Assembly: GCA_963730185.1 (NCBI GenBank)
Contig: CAVSQW010000012.1
Span: 128,001 to 192,000, forward strand
DNA from: an uncultured Gemmatimonadales bacterium
GTDB lineage: Bacteria > Gemmatimonadota > Gemmatimonadetes > Gemmatimonadales > GWC2-71-9
DNA length: 64,000 nucleotides
Direction: 5' to 3'
In this document: positions 11,365 to 20,882 of the stretch, one piece after another
How positions within the stretch are numbered: position 1 is the first letter of the stretch
How the letters are laid out: each line of letters opens with the position of its first letter
Notes under the pieces: model-generated
Seen by the model: only the letters and a program-made list of their open reading frames with translations
Told to the model about the DNA's origin: nothing
Database searches by the model: none
Program-made: the position numbers and the translations under genes

Positions 11365-12042
11365 GTGGCCCACTCGGTCTCCCGACATCTGAATCTCGCG
11401 ATCCAGGACTACGACGTCCTGATCCGCCGTTTCATCCCGAGCTACGATCGGATGCTGGACGAGGTGGTGGAGCGGATCGGCGCGGCCTCGCCCAGGCTGG
11501 TGCTGGACCTGGGATCGGGCACCGGGGCGCTGGCGGAGCGGTTGCTGGCTCGGATTCCGGGCGTCGTCGTGGAGCTCTGGGACGTCGACCCGGCAATGCT
11601 CGACGTGGCGGGCGAGCGGGTCCGCCGCTACGGCGAGCGCGCCCGCCCCGTACTCCGCTCGTACGACGAGGCGCTGCCGGCCGTCGGCGGCGTGATGGCG
11701 TCGCTCTCCCTCCACCACCTGCCCTCGATCGAGGCCAAGGCGGCGCTCTTTCATCGAATCGGAGCTGCCCTGGGGCCGGGAGGCGTCTTCGTCAACGGCG
11801 ACGTGACCATGTCGGCCGACCCGGCGGAACGGGCGGTCAGCTTCGATCGCTGGGAGGCCCACATGGCGACGCAAGCGATCGACGCCGCCGAGGCGCGAGG
11901 ACACTTCGCGGACTGGGCCGGCGAGGACACCTACCTGCCGCTCGACCAGGAGCTCTCGGCCCTCACCACCGCCGGGCTCGAGGCGGAGCTGGCGTGGCGG
12001 GACGATCCGCTGACGGTCATCGCCGGGAGGAAACCATCATGA
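11365..12042 (+). CDS. Class I SAM-dependent methyltransferase
   Basis: VLDLGSGTG, DVDPAML, SLSLHHL, LGPGGVFVNGD. Confidence 0.85.
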   Translation: MAHSVSRHLNLAIQDYDVLIRRFIPSYDRMLDEVVERIGAASPRLVLDLGSGTGALAERLLARIPGVVVELWDVDPAMLDVAGERVRRYGERARPVLRSYDEALPAVGGVMASLSLHHLPSIEAKAALFHRIGAALGPGGVFVNGDVTMSADPAERAVSFDRWEAHMATQAIDAAEARGHFADWAGEDTYLPLDQELSALTTAGLEAELAWRDDPLTVIAGRKPS

Positions 12043-12593
12043 TGGATCGACGCGATTGGCTCGCCGCGGTCGGGGCGGCGGTCTCGACCGCCATGCTGGC
12101 GCCGCTCACGCCGCTGGAGCGGATCGAGGTCGGTCGCCGGGTGCACGGGCTCGCGGCCGCGGGTCGAGCCGGCGTACTCGCCGATCACGAGCTGGCCCTG
12201 GTGGGGACCCTCGCCGATCTGATCATTCCCCGGACCGACACCCCGGGCGCCACGGACGTGGGAGTCCCGGCCTTCGTGGATTTCCTGATGGCCGACTGGT
12301 ACGACGACCGGGAGCGGAGCGACTTCCGCCGCGGCCTCGCCGGAATCGACGCTCGAGGCACCCAACGCTTCGGGGCGACGACCGACGGGCTCACCCCGGC
12401 TCAGCGAACGGAGCTGCTGACCTCGCTCGACGGAGCCCAGGGAGACGCCGCCAGCGCCGAGGGCGCCTTCGGGCGGCTCAAGTCGCTCACCGTCTACGGG
12501 TACTTCACCTCGGAGCGAGTCCAGGAGGAGGTGCTCCACACCGTGATCATCCCCGGTCGGTTCGACGGCTGCGTCCCCTTCCCCGTCCACTGA
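12039..12593 (+). CDS. Gluconate 2-dehydrogenase subunit 3 family protein (Tat carrier subunit)
   Basis: DRRDWL Tat motif; IIPRTDTPGATDVGVPAFVD; LKSLTVYGYFTSE; IPGRFDGC; directly upstream of a GMC gene. Confidence 0.88.
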   Translation: MMDRRDWLAAVGAAVSTAMLAPLTPLERIEVGRRVHGLAAAGRAGVLADHELALVGTLADLIIPRTDTPGATDVGVPAFVDFLMADWYDDRERSDFRRGLAGIDARGTQRFGATTDGLTPAQRTELLTSLDGAQGDAASAEGAFGRLKSLTVYGYFTSERVQEEVLHTVIIPGRFDGCVPFPVH

Positions 12594-12606
12594 CCGGCAG
12601 CCGCCC

Positions 12607-14212
12607 ATGCAACGAGCGACGACCAGATTCGACGCGATCGTGGTGGGGTCGGGCATCACCGGCGGCTGGGCCGCCAAGGAGCTGACCGAACGGGGGCTCC
12701 GGACGCTGGTCCTGGAAGCGGGGCGCAACATCACCCCGGCCAAGGACTACGTCGAGCACGTCCAGGCCTGGCAGATGCCGTTCCGCGGCTACGGCGACCG
12801 GCGGACGCCGGAGCGCGACCAGCCGATCCAGAAGAACTGTTACGCCTGCGACGAGCTAGGCTCCCGCTTCTTCGTCAACGATCGCGAGAATCCGTACGTC
12901 TTCGACGAGGACAAGCCGTTCCACTGGATTCGGGGACGGCACCTCGGGGGACGGTCGATCACCTGGGGCCGGCAGGTGTACCCGCTGGAGCGATCTCGAC
13001 TTCGAGGCCAACCTGCGAGACGGCATCGGCGTGGACTGGCCGATCCGCTACGCCGACATCGAGCCCTGGTACGGCCACGTCGAGCGGTTCATCGGGATCT
13101 CGGGACAGGCGGAAGGGTTGTCGCAACTCCCGGACGGCGAGTTCCTCCCCCCGATGCAGCTCCGCTGCGCCGAGGAGGTGGTCCGGGACGCGGCCGCGAA
13201 GAAGTGGGGCCGGGAGCGGGGCTGCATCACCCACTCCTACTTCTCCAGCCTGGGCTCGACCCTCCCGGCGGCGCGAGCCACCGGCCGACTGACCCTCCGC
13301 CCGGACAGCGTGGTGGAAAGCGTCCTCTACGATCCCAAGCGTGGCCGGGCCCGTGGCGTGCGGGTGATCGACGCCGTGACGATGGCGGTGACCGAGTACG
13401 AGGCCCGGCTCGTGTTCCTCTGCGCCTCGGCGCTCGAATCCGCCCGGATCCTGCTCAACTCCACCAGCGAGCGCTGGCCGGCCGGACTCGCGAACTCGAG
13501 CGGCGAGCTGGGACAGAACGTGATGGATCACTGTTTCGGCGCGGGCGCGAACGGCGAGATCCCCGGGATGCTGGACCGCGACTCGTACGGCGCCCGTCCG
13601 AACGGGGTCTACGTGCCCCGGTTCCGGAACGTCACCCGGAAGCACCCGGACTTCGTCCGAGGCTACGGGTTCCAGGGCGGGGCCTCGCGCTCGGGATGGG
13701 GCCGCGGCGGCAAGGGCTTCGGCGCCGACTACAAGGAGAGTCTCATTCACGACAAAGGACCCTGGCGGATGGGACTCGGCGGGTGGGGTGAGATGCTGCC
13801 CCGGGCGGACAACTACGTGGCGCTCGACGCCACGCTCAAGGACAAGTGGGGGGTCCCGGCCCTCCGGGTCCACTGCACCCACGGTCCCAACGAGCGAGCC
13901 ATCCTCGAGGACGTGCAGCAGACCGCGGCCGAGATGCTCGACGCCGCGGGAGCGAAGAACATCTCGACCTACGACAGCCACCTGCCGCCCGGCCTCTGCA
14001 TCCACGAGATGGGAACCGCCCGGATGGGACGCGATCCGAAGACCTCGGTGCTCAACGGCCACAACCAGTGCCACGACGTCCCCAACCTCTTCCTGACCGA
14101 CGGCGCCTGCATGGCGTCCTCGGCCTGCCAGAACCCGTCGATCACCTACATGGCGCTCACGGCCCGGGCCGCCGCCTGGGCGGTCGGCCAACTCAAACGA
14201 AACGCCCTCTGA
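12607..14212 (+). CDS. GMC-family FAD oxidoreductase (glycoside 3-dehydrogenase-like); one frameshift and an apparent in-frame deletion
   Basis: VVGSGITGGWAAKEL, RGRHLGGRSITWGRQ. An extra C near 12981 breaks QVYRWSDLDFEAN. The second frame has DWPIRY, IHEMGTARMG, DGACMASSACQNPSITYMALTARA. Confidence 0.88.
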
Positions 14213-14214
14213 GG

Positions 14215-15042
14215 ATGCGACGCCGCGACCTGCTCCAGGCCCTGGCCGCGATCGGCCTCCTGCCCCGCTTCGGACGTCGGGTCGACCGGCTCGAGCGGAT
14301 CGGGATCCAGCTCTACACCGTGCGCGACCCGGTGGCGAAGGACTTCGAGGGCACGCTGGCCGCGCTCCATGCGATCGGCTTTCGCGAGGTCGAGTTCGCC
14401 GGCTATCCGAAGGGGCTGAGCGGCCCCGAGGTGGCGGCGATGCTGGGTCGGGTCGGTCTGACCGGGCCGTCGGCCCACATCGGGATGAGCGAGATCCGCG
14501 ATCGGTGGGAGGCGACGCTCGACTTTGCTCGGGCGGTCGGTCATCGCTACCTCGCGGTGGCGTCGGTGCCCGCGCCCGACCGGAGCTCGGCCGAGGCCTA
14601 CCGGCGGCTCGGCGCCGAGCTGAACCGGGCGGGCGAGGCCGCCAGGGCCAAAGGCATCCAGCTCTGCTACCACAACCACGACGTCGAGTTCGAGCGGTTC
14701 GACGGACGCCTGGCCTACGACCTCCTCCTCGAGGGCGTCGACGCCGACCTGGTGACGTTCGAGCTCGACGTCTACTGGATGATCCACGGCGGCGAGGATC
14801 CGGTGGCCTACTTCTCCCGGTGGCCGGGACGGTTCCCGCTGCTCCACCTCAAGGACATGGACCGGACGGCCGCGCGGGACTTCACCGAGCTGGGCCGGGG
14901 TCGAATCGACTTTGCCCGGATTCTCGTAGGGTCCAGGCAGGGTGGTGCTCGACACTACTTCTACGAACAGGACCGCACTCCGGGAGATCCGCTCGCCAGC
15001 GCCCGGGTGAGCTACTCCTACCTCGAGTCGCTACGCTTCTAG
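14215..15042 (+). CDS. Sugar phosphate isomerase/epimerase (xylose isomerase-like TIM barrel), Tat signal
   Basis: MRRRDLL; GIQLYTVR, EVEFAG, YHNHDVEF, FELDVYW, HLKD, ELGRGRIDF, YEQD. Confidence 0.88.
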   Translation: MRRRDLLQALAAIGLLPRFGRRVDRLERIGIQLYTVRDPVAKDFEGTLAALHAIGFREVEFAGYPKGLSGPEVAAMLGRVGLTGPSAHIGMSEIRDRWEATLDFARAVGHRYLAVASVPAPDRSSAEAYRRLGAELNRAGEAARAKGIQLCYHNHDVEFERFDGRLAYDLLLEGVDADLVTFELDVYWMIHGGEDPVAYFSRWPGRFPLLHLKDMDRTAARDFTELGRGRIDFARILVGSRQGGARHYFYEQDRTPGDPLASARVSYSYLESLRF

Positions 15043-15075
15043 ACTCGGGCTCGGCGCGGTCCGGGAGACCGCATC

Positions 15076-15990
15076 ATGGGCCCGTCGATCCTCTGGATAA
15101 CGCTCGCCCTCGCTTGGCTCGGCCAAGGCCCCCGCCCGCCGGAACCCGGCCGGGTGCGGACCATCGCCGACTCGATCCCGGTCGGCACCGGAGGGCTCGC
15201 GCTGGGCCCCGACGGCAACCTCTATCAAGCCGACTTCGGCGCGACCCTGAACCGGGGCCCGGTCGGCACCCGGGTAATGCAGATCCGGCCCGACGGTCGG
15301 ACGAGGGTGTTCGCGACCGGGTTCCGCGGCGCCTCGGGCAACACCTTCGATCCCGACGGCAACCTGCTCCAGTCGAACGTCGCGGGAAATACGCTGAGTC
15401 TGATCCGGCCGGACGGCACGGTACGCACCGTCGTCGATTCGGGCCTCGTCAACCCGGTGGGGGTGACCCGCGGGCCGGACGGCGCCTACTACGTGGCCAA
15501 TTGCGGCAACAACACGATTCGCCGGGTAACGCTCGAGGGCGCCTCGACCGTCTTCTCCACCGACTCCCTCCTCCAATGCCCGAACGGCATCACGCTGGCC
15601 GGTGACGGCAACCTCTACGTCGCCAACTTCAGGAACGGCGACGTGGTGCGAATCGACCGTCAAGGTCTCGGCTCGCGCCTGACAACGCTGCCCGGCCACA
15701 ACAACGGTCACCTGATCTTCGGAAACGGGGTGCTCTACGTCGTGGGTCGGAAGGCCAACCAGCTGTTCGAGGTCACGTTGGACGGTCGGTACCGCGCCAT
15801 CGCCGGCACCGGCGAGCGCGGGGGCCGGGACGGGCCGGCGGCCGAGGCCACCCTGTCCCTCCCCAACGACGTGGCCCTGAGCCCCGACGGCCTGACGCTC
15901 TACTTCTGCGAAGTGGCGGCCGCAGGGCCTGGAGACCAGGTTCTGGCGCCGACCCGGGTCCGAGCCCTGACGCTGCACCGGTCCCGATAG
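15076..15990 (+). CDS. Secreted NHL/SMP-30 (gluconolactonase-like) beta-propeller protein
   Basis: Repeated blades GLALGPDGNLY, FDPDGNLL, PVGVTRGPDGAYYVAN, PNGITLAGDGNLYVAN, PNDVALSPDG; hydrophobic N-terminus. Confidence 0.8.
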   Translation: MGPSILWITLALAWLGQGPRPPEPGRVRTIADSIPVGTGGLALGPDGNLYQADFGATLNRGPVGTRVMQIRPDGRTRVFATGFRGASGNTFDPDGNLLQSNVAGNTLSLIRPDGTVRTVVDSGLVNPVGVTRGPDGAYYVANCGNNTIRRVTLEGASTVFSTDSLLQCPNGITLAGDGNLYVANFRNGDVVRIDRQGLGSRLTTLPGHNNGHLIFGNGVLYVVGRKANQLFEVTLDGRYRAIAGTGERGGRDGPAAEATLSLPNDVALSPDGLTLYFCEVAAAGPGDQVLAPTRVRALTLHRSR

Positions 15991-16068
15991 GCGCTTGCCC
16001 CCGGGCAAAGACGGCGGCATTGTCCCTGACACCGGCGCCGACCGGCGCCGTCGCGTCAGGAGACCACC

Positions 16069-16927
16069 ATGCCCCCGATCAGCCGCCGGGCCGCGCTCGC
16101 CGCGATCGCCGGTTCCGCCGTCGCGCTGCCCCACGCCACCCACCTCGTCGCGGCGCCGGCCACGAGCCGACCCGGCCGACTCCGGCAGTCGGTGTGCCGT
16201 TGGTGCTACGCCGACCTTCCGCTCGACGAGCTCTGCCGGAACGCCAAAGCGATCGGGCTGAAGTCGGTCGAGCTCCTGAGCGAGTCGGAATGGAGCGTGC
16301 CGGCGAAGTACGGACTCACCTGCGCGATGGCCAACGGGCCGTCGACCATCCCGGTGGGCTTCAACCGGCCGAACGAGCACGACCGGCTGGTGGCCGAGTC
16401 GGAGCGGCTGCTGCCGCTCGTGGCGGCGGCGAGGCTGCCGAACATGATCGTGTTCTCGGGCAATCGCGGCGGGATGGGCGACGAGGAGGGGCTGGAGAAC
16501 TGCGTCCGCGGTCTGGGCCGGATCATCCCGACCGCCGAGAGGCTCGGCGTGACGGTGTGCATGGAGCTCCTCAACAGCAAGGTGGACCACAAGGACTACA
16601 TGTGCGACCACACGGCCTGGGGCGTGGAGCTGGCCCAGCGCGTGGGCTCGCCGCGGTTCAAGCTGCTGTACGACATCTACCACATGCAGATCATGGAAGG
16701 CGACGTGATCCGCACCATCCGCGACAACGCCCCGTTTCTCGGGCCACTTCCACACCGGCGGCGTTCCCGGCCGCCACGAGATCGACGACACTCAGGAGCT
16801 CAACTACCCCGCGGTGATGCAGGCCATCGCCGAGACCGGCTTCAACGGGTTCGTGGCGCAGGAGTTCATCCCGACCCGCGACCCGATGACGTCGCTCCGC
16901 CAGGGGGTCGCGGAGTGTACGGTTTGA
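16069..16927 (+). CDS. Hydroxypyruvate isomerase-family TIM barrel protein, Tat signal; one frameshift near 16742
   Basis: SRRAAL; QSVCRWCY, VFSGNR, MELLNSKVDHKDY, LLYDIYHMQIMEGD. Removing one G restores GHFHTGGVPGRHEIDDTQELNY...QEFIP to TGA 16927. Confidence 0.85.
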
Positions 16928-16951: not shown

Positions 16952-18286
16952 TCAGGCGAGTCGGATGGCCGGCGGGGCCGCGCGGGTGGCCACGAACCGG
17001 GCGACCTCGCGGTGTTGGGGAAACTCGGTGAGATAGGCCTCGCGCCACGCGATGAGGAGGCGATCGCGGTCGGTCGATGCGATCAGGGCCCAGACCGCTC
17101 CGCCGAAGCCCGCGCCGAAGGCCGAGGCGGCGACGGCGCCGAACTGGCGGGCCGTCCGGGCCAGGGAGATGGTTTCGGGAATCTGGTTGCCCAAGCCGCG
17201 CTCGGCGCCGGCCTGGGACGCCGCCACCACCTGGCCGAGCTCGGCGAGATCACCGCGGGCGAGGGCATCGGCGGCGGCCGGGATGAGCACCCGGGTCTCC
17301 CGGTCCAGCTGCTGGAGCCGGCGGAGCATCCGATCGCGGCGCTCCGGGTCGACCTCGCGGGTCGCGATGATCTCGCGAAACCGGTCGGCCGATTCGGGTC
17401 CCCGGTCGAGCGCCGCTCCCAGCGTGGGAGCACCGTCGGCCGCGTGGCCCACCACCGCCCAGATCTCGGCCGTGGTCCGGGCGATGGCGTTGTAGTGCTC
17501 CAGAGCCCGTCCAGTCTTCTCCGCCACCACCCCGCTCGACGCGATCACGAACTCGAACCCGGCCGGGAGCGGGACCGCGCCTTCGAAGCGGACCGGATCC
17601 CAGCCGTACCGCACCAGGGCCCCGGGGCGGGAGCAAAGGATGGCCGTCTGGTCCTGGCTCCCGCTCATGGTGCCGACGCCCTCGTACTCGTCGAACCCCC
17701 CGAACGGGCGGCCGCTCTCGAGGGCGCCGAGATATCCGGCCAGGTGCTCGAGGTCGGGAATCGCCGAGCGGAACCGCTCCGTCTCGCGGATCCCGGCCCG
17801 CTCCAGCAGCACCAGCGCCAGACCGACGACCAGGGCGCTCGAGCTGCTCACCCCGGCGGCCCGAGGCAAATCGCTGGCGAACGCGACGTCGGCGCCTTGC
17901 CAGGCGATCGGAAAGTCGCGAGCCAGGCGGCGGACAACGGTGATGGCGTAGTTGCCCCAGTCGCCGGGACGGGGCGGGACGGCGGGGTCGATCTCGATCC
18001 GCCGCGACTCGCCGGAGACGGCGTCGATCACCACCAGCAACGGTTCCGGCCGGGGGCGGGCGGCGAAGGCAATGCCCTGCTCCGTCGCGCACACCAGACT
18101 CCGGCCGCCGGCGTAGTCGGTATGCTTGCCGAGAAACTCGATCCGCCCCGGGGCGTGCAGGGCGATCTCGACGGCGCCAGGGTCGCCTCGCAGTCCGCTT
18201 CGCGCCCGCTCGAAGAGTGCCTCCCGTCGGCCGGCCTCGGCCTCGCCGAACCCGGCGGCGCGGAGGGCCGGGTCGAGAGTCGCCAT
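16952..18286 (-). CDS. GHMP-family sugar kinase (galactokinase-like, atypical sugar-binding motif)
   Basis: ATG 18286 coupled to the upstream stop; APGRIEFLGKHTDY, SDLPRAAGVSSSSA, SGSQDQ, SAFGAGFGG. Confidence 0.85.
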   Translation of the reverse strand: MATLDPALRAAGFGEAEAGRREALFERARSGLRGDPGAVEIALHAPGRIEFLGKHTDYAGGRSLVCATEQGIAFAARPRPEPLLVVIDAVSGESRRIEIDPAVPPRPGDWGNYAITVVRRLARDFPIAWQGADVAFASDLPRAAGVSSSSALVVGLALVLLERAGIRETERFRSAIPDLEHLAGYLGALESGRPFGGFDEYEGVGTMSGSQDQTAILCSRPGALVRYGWDPVRFEGAVPLPAGFEFVIASSGVVAEKTGRALEHYNAIARTTAEIWAVVGHAADGAPTLGAALDRGPESADRFREIIATREVDPERRDRMLRRLQQLDRETRVLIPAAADALARGDLAELGQVVAASQAGAERGLGNQIPETISLARTARQFGAVAASAFGAGFGGAVWALIASTDRDRLLIAWREAYLTEFPQHREVARFVATRAAPPAIRLA

Positions 18287-19101
18287 CAGAGACGGACCTC
18301 CAGATGCTCCACCCGGCGACGGACCCGCTCGATGTCGGACCGGCTGGAGAGATCGAGCACGATTCCCCGCCAGGGAACGACCTGGAAACGGACCCCGAGC
18401 TCCGTCAGGGCCAGCATGACCGCGCTCTGGAGCTCGAGCTCCCCGCGGGGCGACGGGGTGATCCGCCGGCAGGCCTCGAAGATCTCCGGGCCGAACCGCC
18501 AACTGTTCATGCTCACCGGCGCCCCGGGCCCGAGCACCCGAGCCGTGGCCGGGTCGGGTTTCTCCACGATCCGCTCGAGCGCGCCGTCGGCGGCCACCTG
18601 GAGCAGGGCGTACTTCGCGATCCGCTCCGGCTCGATGTCGCCGCTCTCGATCAAGGCGGTCCGATCGTAGCCGATCAGCCCCGGGCCGTCGAGCTCGCCC
18701 AGGGCACGGAGGGCCCCCACCGGATAGAGGTTGTCGGCGTTGATCACCACGAAGGGATCGTCCCCCACCACGGGGCGCGCGGCCGCCACGGCGTCCGCGG
18801 TGCCGAGCGGCTCGGCCTGGACCGCGAAGGTCAGCCTGACCCGGTCGAGCTGGACCTCGGCGCCATAACGGCGCCGGAGAGGCTCGTGGTCGGGGGCGAC
18901 CACCAGGCAGACCTGGTCGAGGCCGGCCTCGGCCAGGCTGTGCAGCACGTAGTCCAGAAACGGGCGGCCGACCGGGACCAGCGCCTTGAGGCCGCGATCG
19001 GCCATGGCGGCCTGATCGGCCGTCAGCCTCACGCCTTCCGCGGCTTTCCGCATCCGGGTCCCCAGCCCCCGCGCCAGGACCACCGCCCGATCGGTGGTCA
19101 C
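18286..19101 (-). CDS. Sugar-1-phosphate nucleotidyltransferase (RmlA/GalU-like NTP_transferase)
   Basis: GTG 19101 overlaps the SSS stop; VVLARGLGTRMR, KALVPV, QAEPLGTADAV, INADNLY, IVEKP, SPRGELEL. Confidence 0.85.
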   Translation of the reverse strand: MTTDRAVVLARGLGTRMRKAAEGVRLTADQAAMADRGLKALVPVGRPFLDYVLHSLAEAGLDQVCLVVAPDHEPLRRRYGAEVQLDRVRLTFAVQAEPLGTADAVAAARPVVGDDPFVVINADNLYPVGALRALGELDGPGLIGYDRTALIESGDIEPERIAKYALLQVAADGALERIVEKPDPATARVLGPGAPVSMNSWRFGPEIFEACRRITPSPRGELELQSAVMLALTELGVRFQVVPWRGIVLDLSSRSDIERVRRRVEHLEVRL

Positions 19102-20882
19102 GATCCGACTCCAGCGGCTTCGCTCCCCGACCAGATCCGGGGGACCAGCCAGAGCAGCCCGGCGCCGGTCGCCACGAAGACCACGGCCCAGAGGGTCGCC
19201 GGGCCGTTCCGCCCGTAGAGCCAGCTCCCGAACCCGAAGAGGGCGGCGAAGACGAAGGTGCAGCCCAGCACCCAGGCCAGAAAGGCATGCGGCAGGCTGT
19301 CGGGGGAGGGCGGCAACCCGGTTTCGGCCCGGATCGCCCGCCAGCCCGGACCGGCCGGCCGGGTCAGGCGATAGAACCGCTCCAGGGTGGATCGATCGGT
19401 CGGCCGGGTCAGGAAGGTGGCCGCGAGCCAGACGACGGTGGTGATCGCGACCGTCACGAGGAGGGACACGTGGGCCGGCACGCCCGCGCCCAGCCGGGCC
19501 GCGATGAAGAACCCGACTGCCACGACGAACGAGCTCACCATGGCCGCGATCTCGCTCCAGGCGTTGATTCGCCACCAGAACCAGCGGAGGAGATAGATCA
19601 GGCCGGTGCCGGCCCCGACCGACAGCATCAGGTCGAAGCTGGCTTTGGCCGAGTCGAGCACGAACGTGATGCTCGCCGCCACCAGCATCAGCAGCGCGGT
19701 GGTGATCCGGGCGACCAGGACGTAGTGGGCCTCGGCGCGGCCCGGCCGAAGGAAGCGACGATAGAAGTCGTGGACCAGGTAGGACGTTCCCCAGTTGAGC
19801 TGGGTCGAGATGGTGGAGACGTACGCCGCCAGCAGTCCGGCGATCATCAGTCCGAGGAACCCGGCCGGCAGGAACCGGAGCATGGCGGGATAGGCCATGT
19901 CGTGCCCGATCAGCCGGGGATCCACCCAGGGCAGCGTCCGGGCGATGTCGCCGAGGCTCGGGTAGACCAGGAGCGAGGCCAGCGCCACCAGGATCCAGGG
20001 CCAGGAGCGGACCGCATAGTGGGCCACGTTGAAGAACAGGGTGCCGGAGAGGGCATCGCGCTCGCTCCGCGACGCGAGGATCCGCTGGGCGATATAGCTG
20101 CCGCCACCCGGCTCGGACCCGGGATACCAGACCGACCACCATTGCACCGTGAGCGGGATGACCAGCACCGTCAGCGTCAGGCCCCAGTCGCCGAAGTCGG
20201 GCAGCAAGTTCAACTTGGCGGGATCGAGCCGGGTCAGGAGGCCGGAGAGCCCGCCGACCTCGGGCTGCTTCAAGGCGAAGTAGGCCGCGGCGATGGACCC
20301 GGTCATCGCGATCCCGAACTGGATGAAGTCGGTCACCAGCACGCCCCACAGGCCGGACGTCGCGGCGAACGCGATGCAGACCACCGCGGCGATGGCCAGC
20401 GTCTTTTCCATCGGCCAGCCGAGGACCACGTTCGCGATCTTGGCGGCGGCGAGGTTGACCGACGCCATGATGACGCAGTTGAAGAAGAGCCCCAGATAGA
20501 CCGCCCGAAAGCCGCGCACGAACGTGGCCGGCCGACCGGCATAGCGGATCTCGTAGAACTCGAGATCGGTCAGCATCCCGGACCGGCGCCAGAGCCGGGC
20601 GTAGAAGAAGACGGTCATCACCCCGGTGAGGAGAAACGACCACCAGACCCAGTTGGCGGACACGCCGTTCTCGCGGACCAGGTTCGTGACGAGGTTGGGC
20701 GTGTCGGTGCTGAAGGTGGTGGCGACCATCGACACGCCGATGAGCCACCACGGCGCCGACCGCCCCGACGTGAAGAACTCGGCCGTGCTGCTCCCCGCCC
20801 GCCGGGCCAGGAGGAGCGCCGGGGTGTAGGCGATCACCAGCGAGACGACGATGACGATCCAGTCCAGCGAGGTGAGCTGCAT
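19098..20882 (-). CDS. Sodium:solute symporter family protein
   Basis: MQLTSLDWI; FFTSGRSAPWW, SMVATTFSTDTP, GVLVTDFIQF, YIAQRILA, AAYVSTISTQLNWG; many TM segments. Confidence 0.9.
   Translation of the reverse strand: MQLTSLDWIVIVVSLVIAYTPALLLARRAGSSTAEFFTSGRSAPWWLIGVSMVATTFSTDTPNLVTNLVRENGVSANWVWWSFLLTGVMTVFFYARLWRRSGMLTDLEFYEIRYAGRPATFVRGFRAVYLGLFFNCVIMASVNLAAAKIANVVLGWPMEKTLAIAAVVCIAFAATSGLWGVLVTDFIQFGIAMTGSIAAAYFALKQPEVGGLSGLLTRLDPAKLNLLPDFGDWGLTLTVLVIPLTVQWWSVWYPGSEPGGGSYIAQRILASRSERDALSGTLFFNVAHYAVRSWPWILVALASLLVYPSLGDIARTLPWVDPRLIGHDMAYPAMLRFLPAGFLGLMIAGLLAAYVSTISTQLNWGTSYLVHDFYRRFLRPGRAEAHYVLVARITTALLMLVAASITFVLDSAKASFDLMLSVGAGTGLIYLLRWFWWRINAWSEIAAMVSSFVVAVGFFIAARLGAGVPAHVSLLVTVAITTVVWLAATFLTRPTDRSTLERFYRLTRPAGPGWRAIRAETGLPPSPDSLPHAFLAWVLGCTFVFAALFGFGSWLYGRNGPATLWAVVFVATGAGLLWLVPRIWSGSEAAGVGS

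Follow-up and report, generated by a model that had tools for sequence, protein, structure and literature searches.

A conserved symporter, nucleotidyltransferase and Lys-type sugar-1-kinase operon in Gemmatimonadota, a candidate route for N-acetylgalactosamine salvage

The window analysed here is a stretch of 64,000 nucleotides from an uncultured Gemmatimonadales bacterium (GenBank assembly GCA_963730185.1, contig CAVSQW010000012.1, positions 128,001 to 192,000; contig C12 in our numbering). Its minus strand carries a real, conserved and uncharacterised import-kinase-pyrophosphorylase unit of three genes, whose kinase is a GHMP-superfamily enzyme with Lys where galactokinases have Glu in the sugar-binding motif ("Lys-type"). 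The features are listed below.

19098-20882, minus strand: sodium:solute symporter (SSS), 594 amino acids, PF00474; predicted sugar importer
18286-19101, minus strand: nucleotidyltransferase, 271 amino acids from a GTG start, PF00483; RmlA/GalU/GlmU-N fold
16952-18286, minus strand: Lys-type GHMP sugar-1-kinase, 444 amino acids, PF10509, PF00288 and PF08544; galactokinase fold
19098-19101, minus strand: stop/start overlap GTGA between symporter and transferase, read from the sequence
18284-18288, minus strand: stop/start overlap TGATG between transferase and kinase, read from the sequence
18125-18139, minus strand: codons Glu50 to Lys54 (EFLGK), swapped form of the usual N-L-I-G-E, from the sequence and family alignment
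17651-17656, minus strand: Gln211-Asp212, the predicted catalytic Asp preceded by Gln/Glu and not Met, from alignment
17516-17518, minus strand: Lys257, common to human GALK2 and Glu-type kinases, from alignment

The first-pass annotation of this DNA had described the genes as translationally coupled; the coupling is real, since stop and start codons overlap at both junctions (GTGA, 19101-19098; TGATG, 18288-18284), and the Pfam domains agree. Also borne out were a Lys codon at 18125-18127 (Lys54 is AAG at 18127-18125 within PGRIEFLGKHTDY), the transferase motif LARGLGTRMR and the lack of galT and galE in the window. GalT (PF01087) was found nowhere in the source genome (81.8% complete), in which GalE-like genes lie on other contigs (C7, C15 and C17) and the operon kinase is the sole PF10509 match. 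Scanning for promoters and terminators gave results at chance level, and a plasmid search returned no match at 1e-30.

None of the three proteins reached an NCBIfam cut-off. The symporter matched PF00474 (E 1.7e-26; 93.5 bits, cut-off 22.8) and scored 101.9 bits against TIGR00813 (cut-off 184), its best solved relatives being sodium/glucose cotransporters. The transferase carries the motifs of sugar-1-phosphate nucleotidyltransferases (GxGxR...K, Q...GT, D-N, EKP and a metal-binding Asp), and its residues K39, Q95, G100, N121, D123, N124, E180 and D250 are invariant in 73/73 relatives; all 22 of its NCBIfam matches, including RmlA, GalU, GlmU, MurU and HddC, stayed under cut-off (best 106 bits vs 400). 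LARG was rejected as a specificity marker because Arg11 is not invariant (57/73 transferases, and likewise 101/120). The kinase has the N and C domains, PxxxGLSSS ATP loop, Arg/Asp catalytic pair and fold of the GHMP superfamily; its AlphaFold model (predicted local distance difference test score 96.3) gave Foldseek template-modelling (TM) scores of 0.71-0.77 to galactokinases and GALK2. Against the galactokinase profile TIGR00131 it scored 82.7 bits, under the cut-off of 226.65.

Kinase homologues were collected by an unseeded phmmer search (479 representatives at E <= 1e-30), and motifs were counted in the best 150. Lys54 was kept in 146/148 aligned residues, which rules out a sequencing error or a strain quirk. 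It is accompanied by a linked change that the annotation had missed, Asn to Glu four residues upstream (Glu50, 147/147 aligned homologues). E50/K54 occurred in 77/77 Lys-type kinases vs N50 with E/D54 in 41/41 others, and thus the two positions form a covarying pair; all 77 read E-x-x-G-K-H-x-D-Y and not the galactokinase motif N-x-x-G-E-H-x-D-Y. The catalytic D212 is present in 77/77, preceded by Q (46/77) or E (31/77) where 41/41 others have M. Lys257, found in 147/150 homologues and 40/41 Glu/Asp-type kinases, aligns with the Lys of "EMNK" in GALK2 and was not seen in the canonical galactokinase copies inspected. Moreover, Lys-type kinases have Ser388 and Phe390 where GALK2-like enzymes have Arg and Thr, carry an 11-residue insert at 190-200, and form a separate clade on a long branch relative to canonical GalK.

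We take the Glu of galactokinases at the Lys54 position to bind the C6 hydroxyl, Asp57 and Tyr265 to be galacto-C4 contacts, the Met before the catalytic Asp to exclude gluco sugars, and the EMNK loop of GALK2 to line the N-acetyl pocket; galacturonokinase (GalAK) presumably has Ala, not Lys, at position 54. Such residue roles in GalK, GALK2 and GalAK have reportedly been described, among others by Yang in 2009 for galacturonokinase and by Timson and Reece in 2003 for galactokinase mutants. For WcbL, a heptose-7-phosphate kinase, an excerpt of PMC4691232 describes a sugar contact by the Gln that precedes the catalytic Asp and links this Gln to a larger substrate; residue 211 of the Lys-type kinase would be its equivalent.

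The family profile, run on 301 genomes of the window's phylum at E <= 1e-40, matched 121 genomes (79 high-scoring and 42 low-scoring). One high-scoring genome (G157) was kept in the tallies and excluded from locus analysis throughout; synteny was examined for 120/121 matches, the window included, over flanks of 5-18 kb, some ended by contig ends. These genomes are related, so that locus and genome counts are not independent events, and neighbour scans covered 73/123, 24/41, 58/78, 39/40 and 60/132. Seeded sets (80 genome loci and 80 metagenome loci) were not used for motif counts because their seed patterns contain the Lys motif.

All 78 high-scoring loci were Lys-type. The transferase adjoined the kinase in 74/78, an orthologue of the symporter was present in 53/78 and all three genes occurred in 52/78; one homologue (P0151) is a transferase-kinase fusion. 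GalT was found in 2/79 Lys-type genomes, there adjoining a different kinase. The conserved Lys, the synteny, the fusion and the rarity of GalT uphold the core of the first-pass proposal, a route of import, sugar-1-kinase and nucleoside diphosphate (NDP)-sugar pyrophosphorylase that bypasses GalT. Beyond the phylum, at E <= 1e-70, the profile matched 10/251 and 19/251 genomes in the phyla of the Planctomycetota and Acidobacteriota loci respectively. Of 27 loci from these two phyla, 26 were Lys-type and one was truncated; the transferase was present in 20, the symporter in six, GH109 in six and a NagB-deacetylase fusion in two. An Actinomycetota-rich Atlas cluster similar to the kinase family is a lead only. 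One genome holds a second, partial Lys-type kinase copy (G207:C13:545483-546220).

The commonest hydrolase neighbour was GH109, in the flanks of 46/78 Lys-type loci. One such protein scored 366 bits to 6t2b and 344 bits to the alpha-N-acetylgalactosaminidase 2ixa, far above the 24 bits to 8qc2, which we take to be a GH188 sulfoquinovosidase; sulfoquinovose salvage was rejected on these scores. Other recurring neighbours were a secreted melibiase-like protein (7/78 loci, never with GH109), GH20 (5/78) and NagB-deacetylase fusions adjoining the kinase (5/80 loci). GH35 adjoins some Acidobacteriota loci, and the Planctomycetota locus L058 also carries a WbpP/WbgU-like epimerase. GH109, GH36 and GH20 are GalNAc (N-acetylgalactosamine)-releasing families, as stated in an excerpt of PMC12118421. 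In the source genome GH109 lies on contig C7, and GH20 and NagB genes are likewise on contigs other than that of the operon.

At L004:1979-4051, L072:9360-11477 and 29 further loci, a Tat-exported protein of ~690 amino acids (Atlas auto-name "enterotoxin family protein") was observed; it had no Pfam, NCBIfam or PDB match, and its next neighbours were melibiase/GH36-like clusters. It is likely a glycoside hydrolase, because it takes the place of GH109 in the operon, and perhaps an alpha-GalNAcase. One NagB-deacetylase fusion gene (G000:C2:191146-192957) was recovered in four tblastn pieces, suggesting assembly indel errors.

The low-scoring class (42 loci) comprised 41 kinases with the ordinary N..GE/D motif and one that was not read. 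By common residues 40 of the 41 Glu/Asp-type loci were GALK2-like, and one (L102) was canonical GalK. For the one Glu-type kinase tested, the best solved relative was human GALK2 (194 bits vs 175 for GalK), with the motif ERYVGTEGGGMDQ vs ERYIGTEGGGMDQ of GALK2. The 41 loci carried the same symporter group as Lys-type loci in 25 cases, GH109 in ten and a different, 3pnn-like transferase family in 35. The operon symporter is 58% identical to one adjoining a Glu-type kinase; the two symporter sets had 193 shared conserved columns vs 11 fixed differences, with the Glu-type symporters forming one clade among Lys-type ones. GH109s of both locus types had the same motifs and fell into one mixed clade (42 sequences). 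The loci that combine a GALK2-like kinase and a transferase of the 3pnn family with this symporter group (L092, L100, L187, L205 and others) represent a candidate second GalNAc salvage operon, and the more easily interpreted of the two.

Lys-type and Glu-type kinases occurred together in no genome among the 301 at E <= 1e-40. An apparent mutual exclusion of Lys-type kinase and canonical GalK proved wrong, since canonical GalK does not reach the 1e-40 threshold and is in fact found alongside the Lys-type: a second high-scoring galactokinase gene was present in 15/77 Lys-type genomes and 5/5 from other phyla, and the motif, readable in 13/15 and 5/5, was canonical in all 18. This pattern is expected if the Lys-type kinase does the job of the GALK2-like enzyme and not that of galactokinase. 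The canonical galactokinases of Lys-type genomes at L230-L239 adjoin Pfam-less proteins of ~600 amino acids or FadL-type outer-membrane proteins; most of these genomes lack GalT and GalE.

We consider it somewhat more probable than otherwise that the operon imports GalNAc and converts it via GalNAc-1-phosphate to UDP-GalNAc (UDP, uridine diphosphate). This reading draws on: i) GH109 beside 46/78 Lys-type loci and 6/27 loci of other phyla; ii) the recurrence of melibiase/GH36-like, GH20 and NagB-deacetylase neighbours, and the epimerase of L058; iii) the symporter group and GH109 clade shared with GALK2-like Glu-type kinases; iv) the absence of genomes with both kinase types while canonical GalK coexists; v) GT-x-GG-x-x-D and Lys257, common to Lys-type kinases and GALK2; vi) the failure to find the tagatose route, with only marginal matches to its KbaZ (<= 29 bits, in 6/77 Lys-type genomes), the route that, together with C6 phosphorylation, describes bacterial GalNAc use in the excerpted review (PMC12118421).

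In the proposed pathway, free GalNAc would be released by a GH109 N-acetylgalactosaminidase, encoded in the same cluster in most relatives and on C7 in the source genome, and would enter through the symporter. The Lys-type kinase would use ATP to phosphorylate it at carbon 1; the transferase would then turn GalNAc-1-phosphate into UDP-GalNAc without GalT, the nucleotide presumably being uridine triphosphate (UTP). UDP-GalNAc might then be used directly or be epimerised to UDP-GlcNAc (GlcNAc, N-acetylglucosamine); the source genome has GalE and a WbpP/WbgU-like epimerase (258 bits). GlcNAc may be a further substrate of the kinase. Lys54 and Glu50 would pair up, one change compensating for the other, and could still hydrogen-bond a neutral C6 hydroxyl. 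The kinase likely works like GALK2, although we do not file it as a GALK2 member.

Several results weigh against this reading. In structure comparison, human GALK1 and archaeal galactokinases came first and GALK2 (2a2c) ranked 42 with an about equal TM score of 0.75, while the family sequence profile gave near-equal scores to B. infantis GalK (139 bits) and GALK2 (137 bits). The C4/C6 pocket is remodelled, with changes at several positions conserved in GALK2-like enzymes (E50, K54, Q/E211, S388, F390 and the 11-residue insert), and Gln/Glu211 resembles the WcbL Gln tied to a larger substrate in the excerpt of PMC4691232. The two kinase types never share a transferase family, a possible sign that their substrates differ. 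As for GH109, the window has none near the operon; it is present in 54/79 Lys-type genomes and absent from 25/79, and it occurs in 63/180 genomes having neither kinase type, so that its position beside the kinase, not its presence, carries the argument. Downstream, canonical GalE over cut-off is present in only 4/77 Lys-type genomes, and WbpP-like matches, found in 51/77, are mostly at 36-45% identity, which leaves the downstream epimerase unclear in most relatives. This distribution somewhat favours GlcNAc or direct use of UDP-GalNAc and disfavours galactose.

Best placed among the alternatives, though unlikely, is an anionic N-acetylhexosamine (HexNAc) such as GalNAc-6-sulfate or N-acetylgalactosaminuronate, with Lys54, held by Glu50, binding the C6 anion and an acidic UDP-HexNAc as the product. 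It would suit a nearly invariant Lys54 in place of the Glu to which we assign C6-hydroxyl binding in galactokinases, a swap that moves the net charge of the 50/54 pair from -1 to 0, a residue 211 resembling Q162 of WcbL and a transferase partner strictly specific to each kinase type, and it retains the GH109 link. On the other hand, Glu-type kinases share the symporter group and the GH109 clade, the GH109s of the two locus types do not differ in their motifs, and no sulfatase family was found among the neighbours scanned. We give a low probability to a pocket remodelled (Glu50, Lys54, Gln/Glu211 and Phe390) to select a C6-anionic HexNAc; in that case the GHMP kinase and transferase would activate an acidic amino sugar directly to its NDP form, as a counterpart of the GALK2-like operon in related genomes.

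Next, and also improbable, is GlcNAc, with its equatorial C4 hydroxyl, as the main substrate, yielding UDP-GlcNAc for the cell envelope in the manner of NahK with a GlmU-type transferase. The polar Q/E211 replaces a Met that presumably excludes gluco sugars. The manno-heptose kinase WcbL has Gln there (excerpt of PMC4691232). NagB-deacetylase and GH20 neighbours, the few genomes with canonical GalE and the lack of GlmU over cut-off in the source genome (best 84 bits) would fit as well. Against GlcNAc, GH109 far outnumbers GH20 among neighbours (46/78 vs 5/78), and Asp57 and Tyr265, by our assumption galacto-C4 contacts, are kept.

Galactose, converted via galactose-1-phosphate to UDP-galactose independently of GalT as by plant galactokinase with UDP-sugar pyrophosphorylase (USP), ranks third and is more doubtful still. 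The kinase has a galactokinase fold and is the only PF10509 gene of a source genome with GalE and no GalT, and the melibiase-like neighbour and the GH35 genes of some Acidobacteriota loci would also suit galactose; yet a second galactokinase gene (15/77 and 5/5 Lys-type genomes), canonical wherever read, GalE over cut-off in only 4/77 and a neighbourhood dominated by GH109 speak against it.

The first-pass annotation had suggested an acidic sugar such as galacturonate, and this part of it is poorly supported: a plant-like route, in which a plain uronic acid (galacturonate or glucuronate) is imported and activated to the NDP-uronic acid, is very improbable. In its favour, Glu is lost and Lys gained in the kinase motif, kinase plus pyrophosphorylase salvage is known in plants and fish (excerpt of PMC3938481), and two single loci hold possible sugar-acid genes (L070, with DUF4861 and SDR; L079, with FAA hydrolase and SDR). 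However, the neighbours are GH109, melibiase-like, GH20 and NagB proteins, and no uronate or pectin family occurs in at least three loci among the recurring neighbour families scanned; GH28 is present in only 7/77 Lys-type genomes, and neither GH28 nor UxaC was found in the source genome (81.8% complete). Moreover, the same symporter occurs with GALK2-like Glu-type kinases, and Lys54 is always accompanied by the Asn-to-Glu change upstream. Any other substrate has an equally slight chance.

Among the closest parallels to the GalNAc pathway proposed here is animal GALK2 (2a2c/2a2d) with UAP1/AGX1, likewise a GHMP sugar-1-kinase followed by a pyrophosphorylase. GALK2 and the Lys-type kinase have GT-x-GG-x-x-D, Lys257 and the fold (TM 0.75) in common, and the Glu-type sister operon is clearly GALK2-like; however, the Lys-type kinase is only ~20% identical, has E50/K54 and not N/E, Q/E211 and not M, and AFGAGFGG in place of LTGAGWGG. 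Unlike AGX1, the operon transferase is small and of RmlA/GalU fold, and the bacterial operon includes a symporter. The Leloir enzymes GalK/GALK1 (TIGR00131; 1pie, 6tep, 1wuu) have the same fold and three Pfam domains, and R48, H55, D57 and D212 are kept in the Lys-type kinase, but the latter falls under the TIGR00131 cut-off, forms a separate clade, has no GalT partner and coexists with canonical GalK.

Bacterial systems that join an anomeric kinase to NDP-sugar formation, like the operon, include Pseudomonas AmgK-MurU, Bifidobacterium NahK of the galacto-N-biose/lacto-N-biose (GNB/LNB) pathway and Bacteroides FKP; NahK and AmgK are not known to be GHMP kinases. The operon transferase scored 39 bits against MurU (cut-off 250), and FKP differs as a fused GDP-fucose enzyme. 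Excerpts describe NahK combined with GlmU/AGX1 (PMC9875253) and the Bacteroides anomeric kinase and NDP-sugar system FKP (PMC11982464). Plant galacturonokinase and glucuronokinase with USP follow the same kinase and pyrophosphorylase logic (excerpts of PMC3938481 and PMC6329318), but a uronate context was not found around the operon. HddA/WcbL heptose-7-phosphate kinases with HddC likewise pair a GHMP kinase having Gln before the catalytic Asp, as far as the WcbL excerpt goes, with a nucleotidyltransferase; they differ in a weak profile match (27-37 bits) and in belonging to biosynthetic capsule clusters vs an importer operon.

The pathway logic is known, and the novelty in detail lies in the subfamily of the kinase, in the transferase that accompanies it and in an apparent exchange with a GALK2-like module; a full-text literature search, with subscription journals mostly outside its coverage, found no paper on the kinase family or the operon. 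If the GalNAc reading is right, Gemmatimonadota and some Planctomycetota and Acidobacteriota would have an animal-style C1 GalNAc salvage route that seems to have been assembled twice around one transporter, each time with other kinase and transferase families. The present annotation of a large family as galactokinase and glucose-1-phosphate thymidylyltransferase would then need revision. The natural Asn/Glu to Glu/Lys swap would offer a handle on C4 and C6 recognition by GHMP kinases. For making UDP-GalNAc, a high-value product according to the excerpt of PMC9875253, a bacterial pair of GalNAc kinase and pyrophosphorylase could be of use.

Around the operon, GMC oxidoreductase, TIM-barrel and 3-keto-disaccharide hydrolase genes recur in 10-19/80 loci, mainly in close relatives, and were not counted as parts because they lie on the opposite strand and run towards it. 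In the window this cluster (12039-16924, plus strand) encodes gluconate 2-dehydrogenase subunit 3, a GMC oxidoreductase, two TIM barrels and a beta-propeller, and presumably resembles 3-ketoglycoside pathways. The GMC oxidoreductase gene (12604-14209, plus strand) is in two frames with a break near 12953-12981, possibly an assembly indel, and the gene for a Tat-signal, xylose-isomerase-like TIM barrel (16069-16924, plus strand) changes frame near 16742. A third GHMP type, PGRLDVMGGIADY, which we take to be plant arabinokinase-like, was observed at L241 and L251-L253, near GalT-like genes in G251 and G295.

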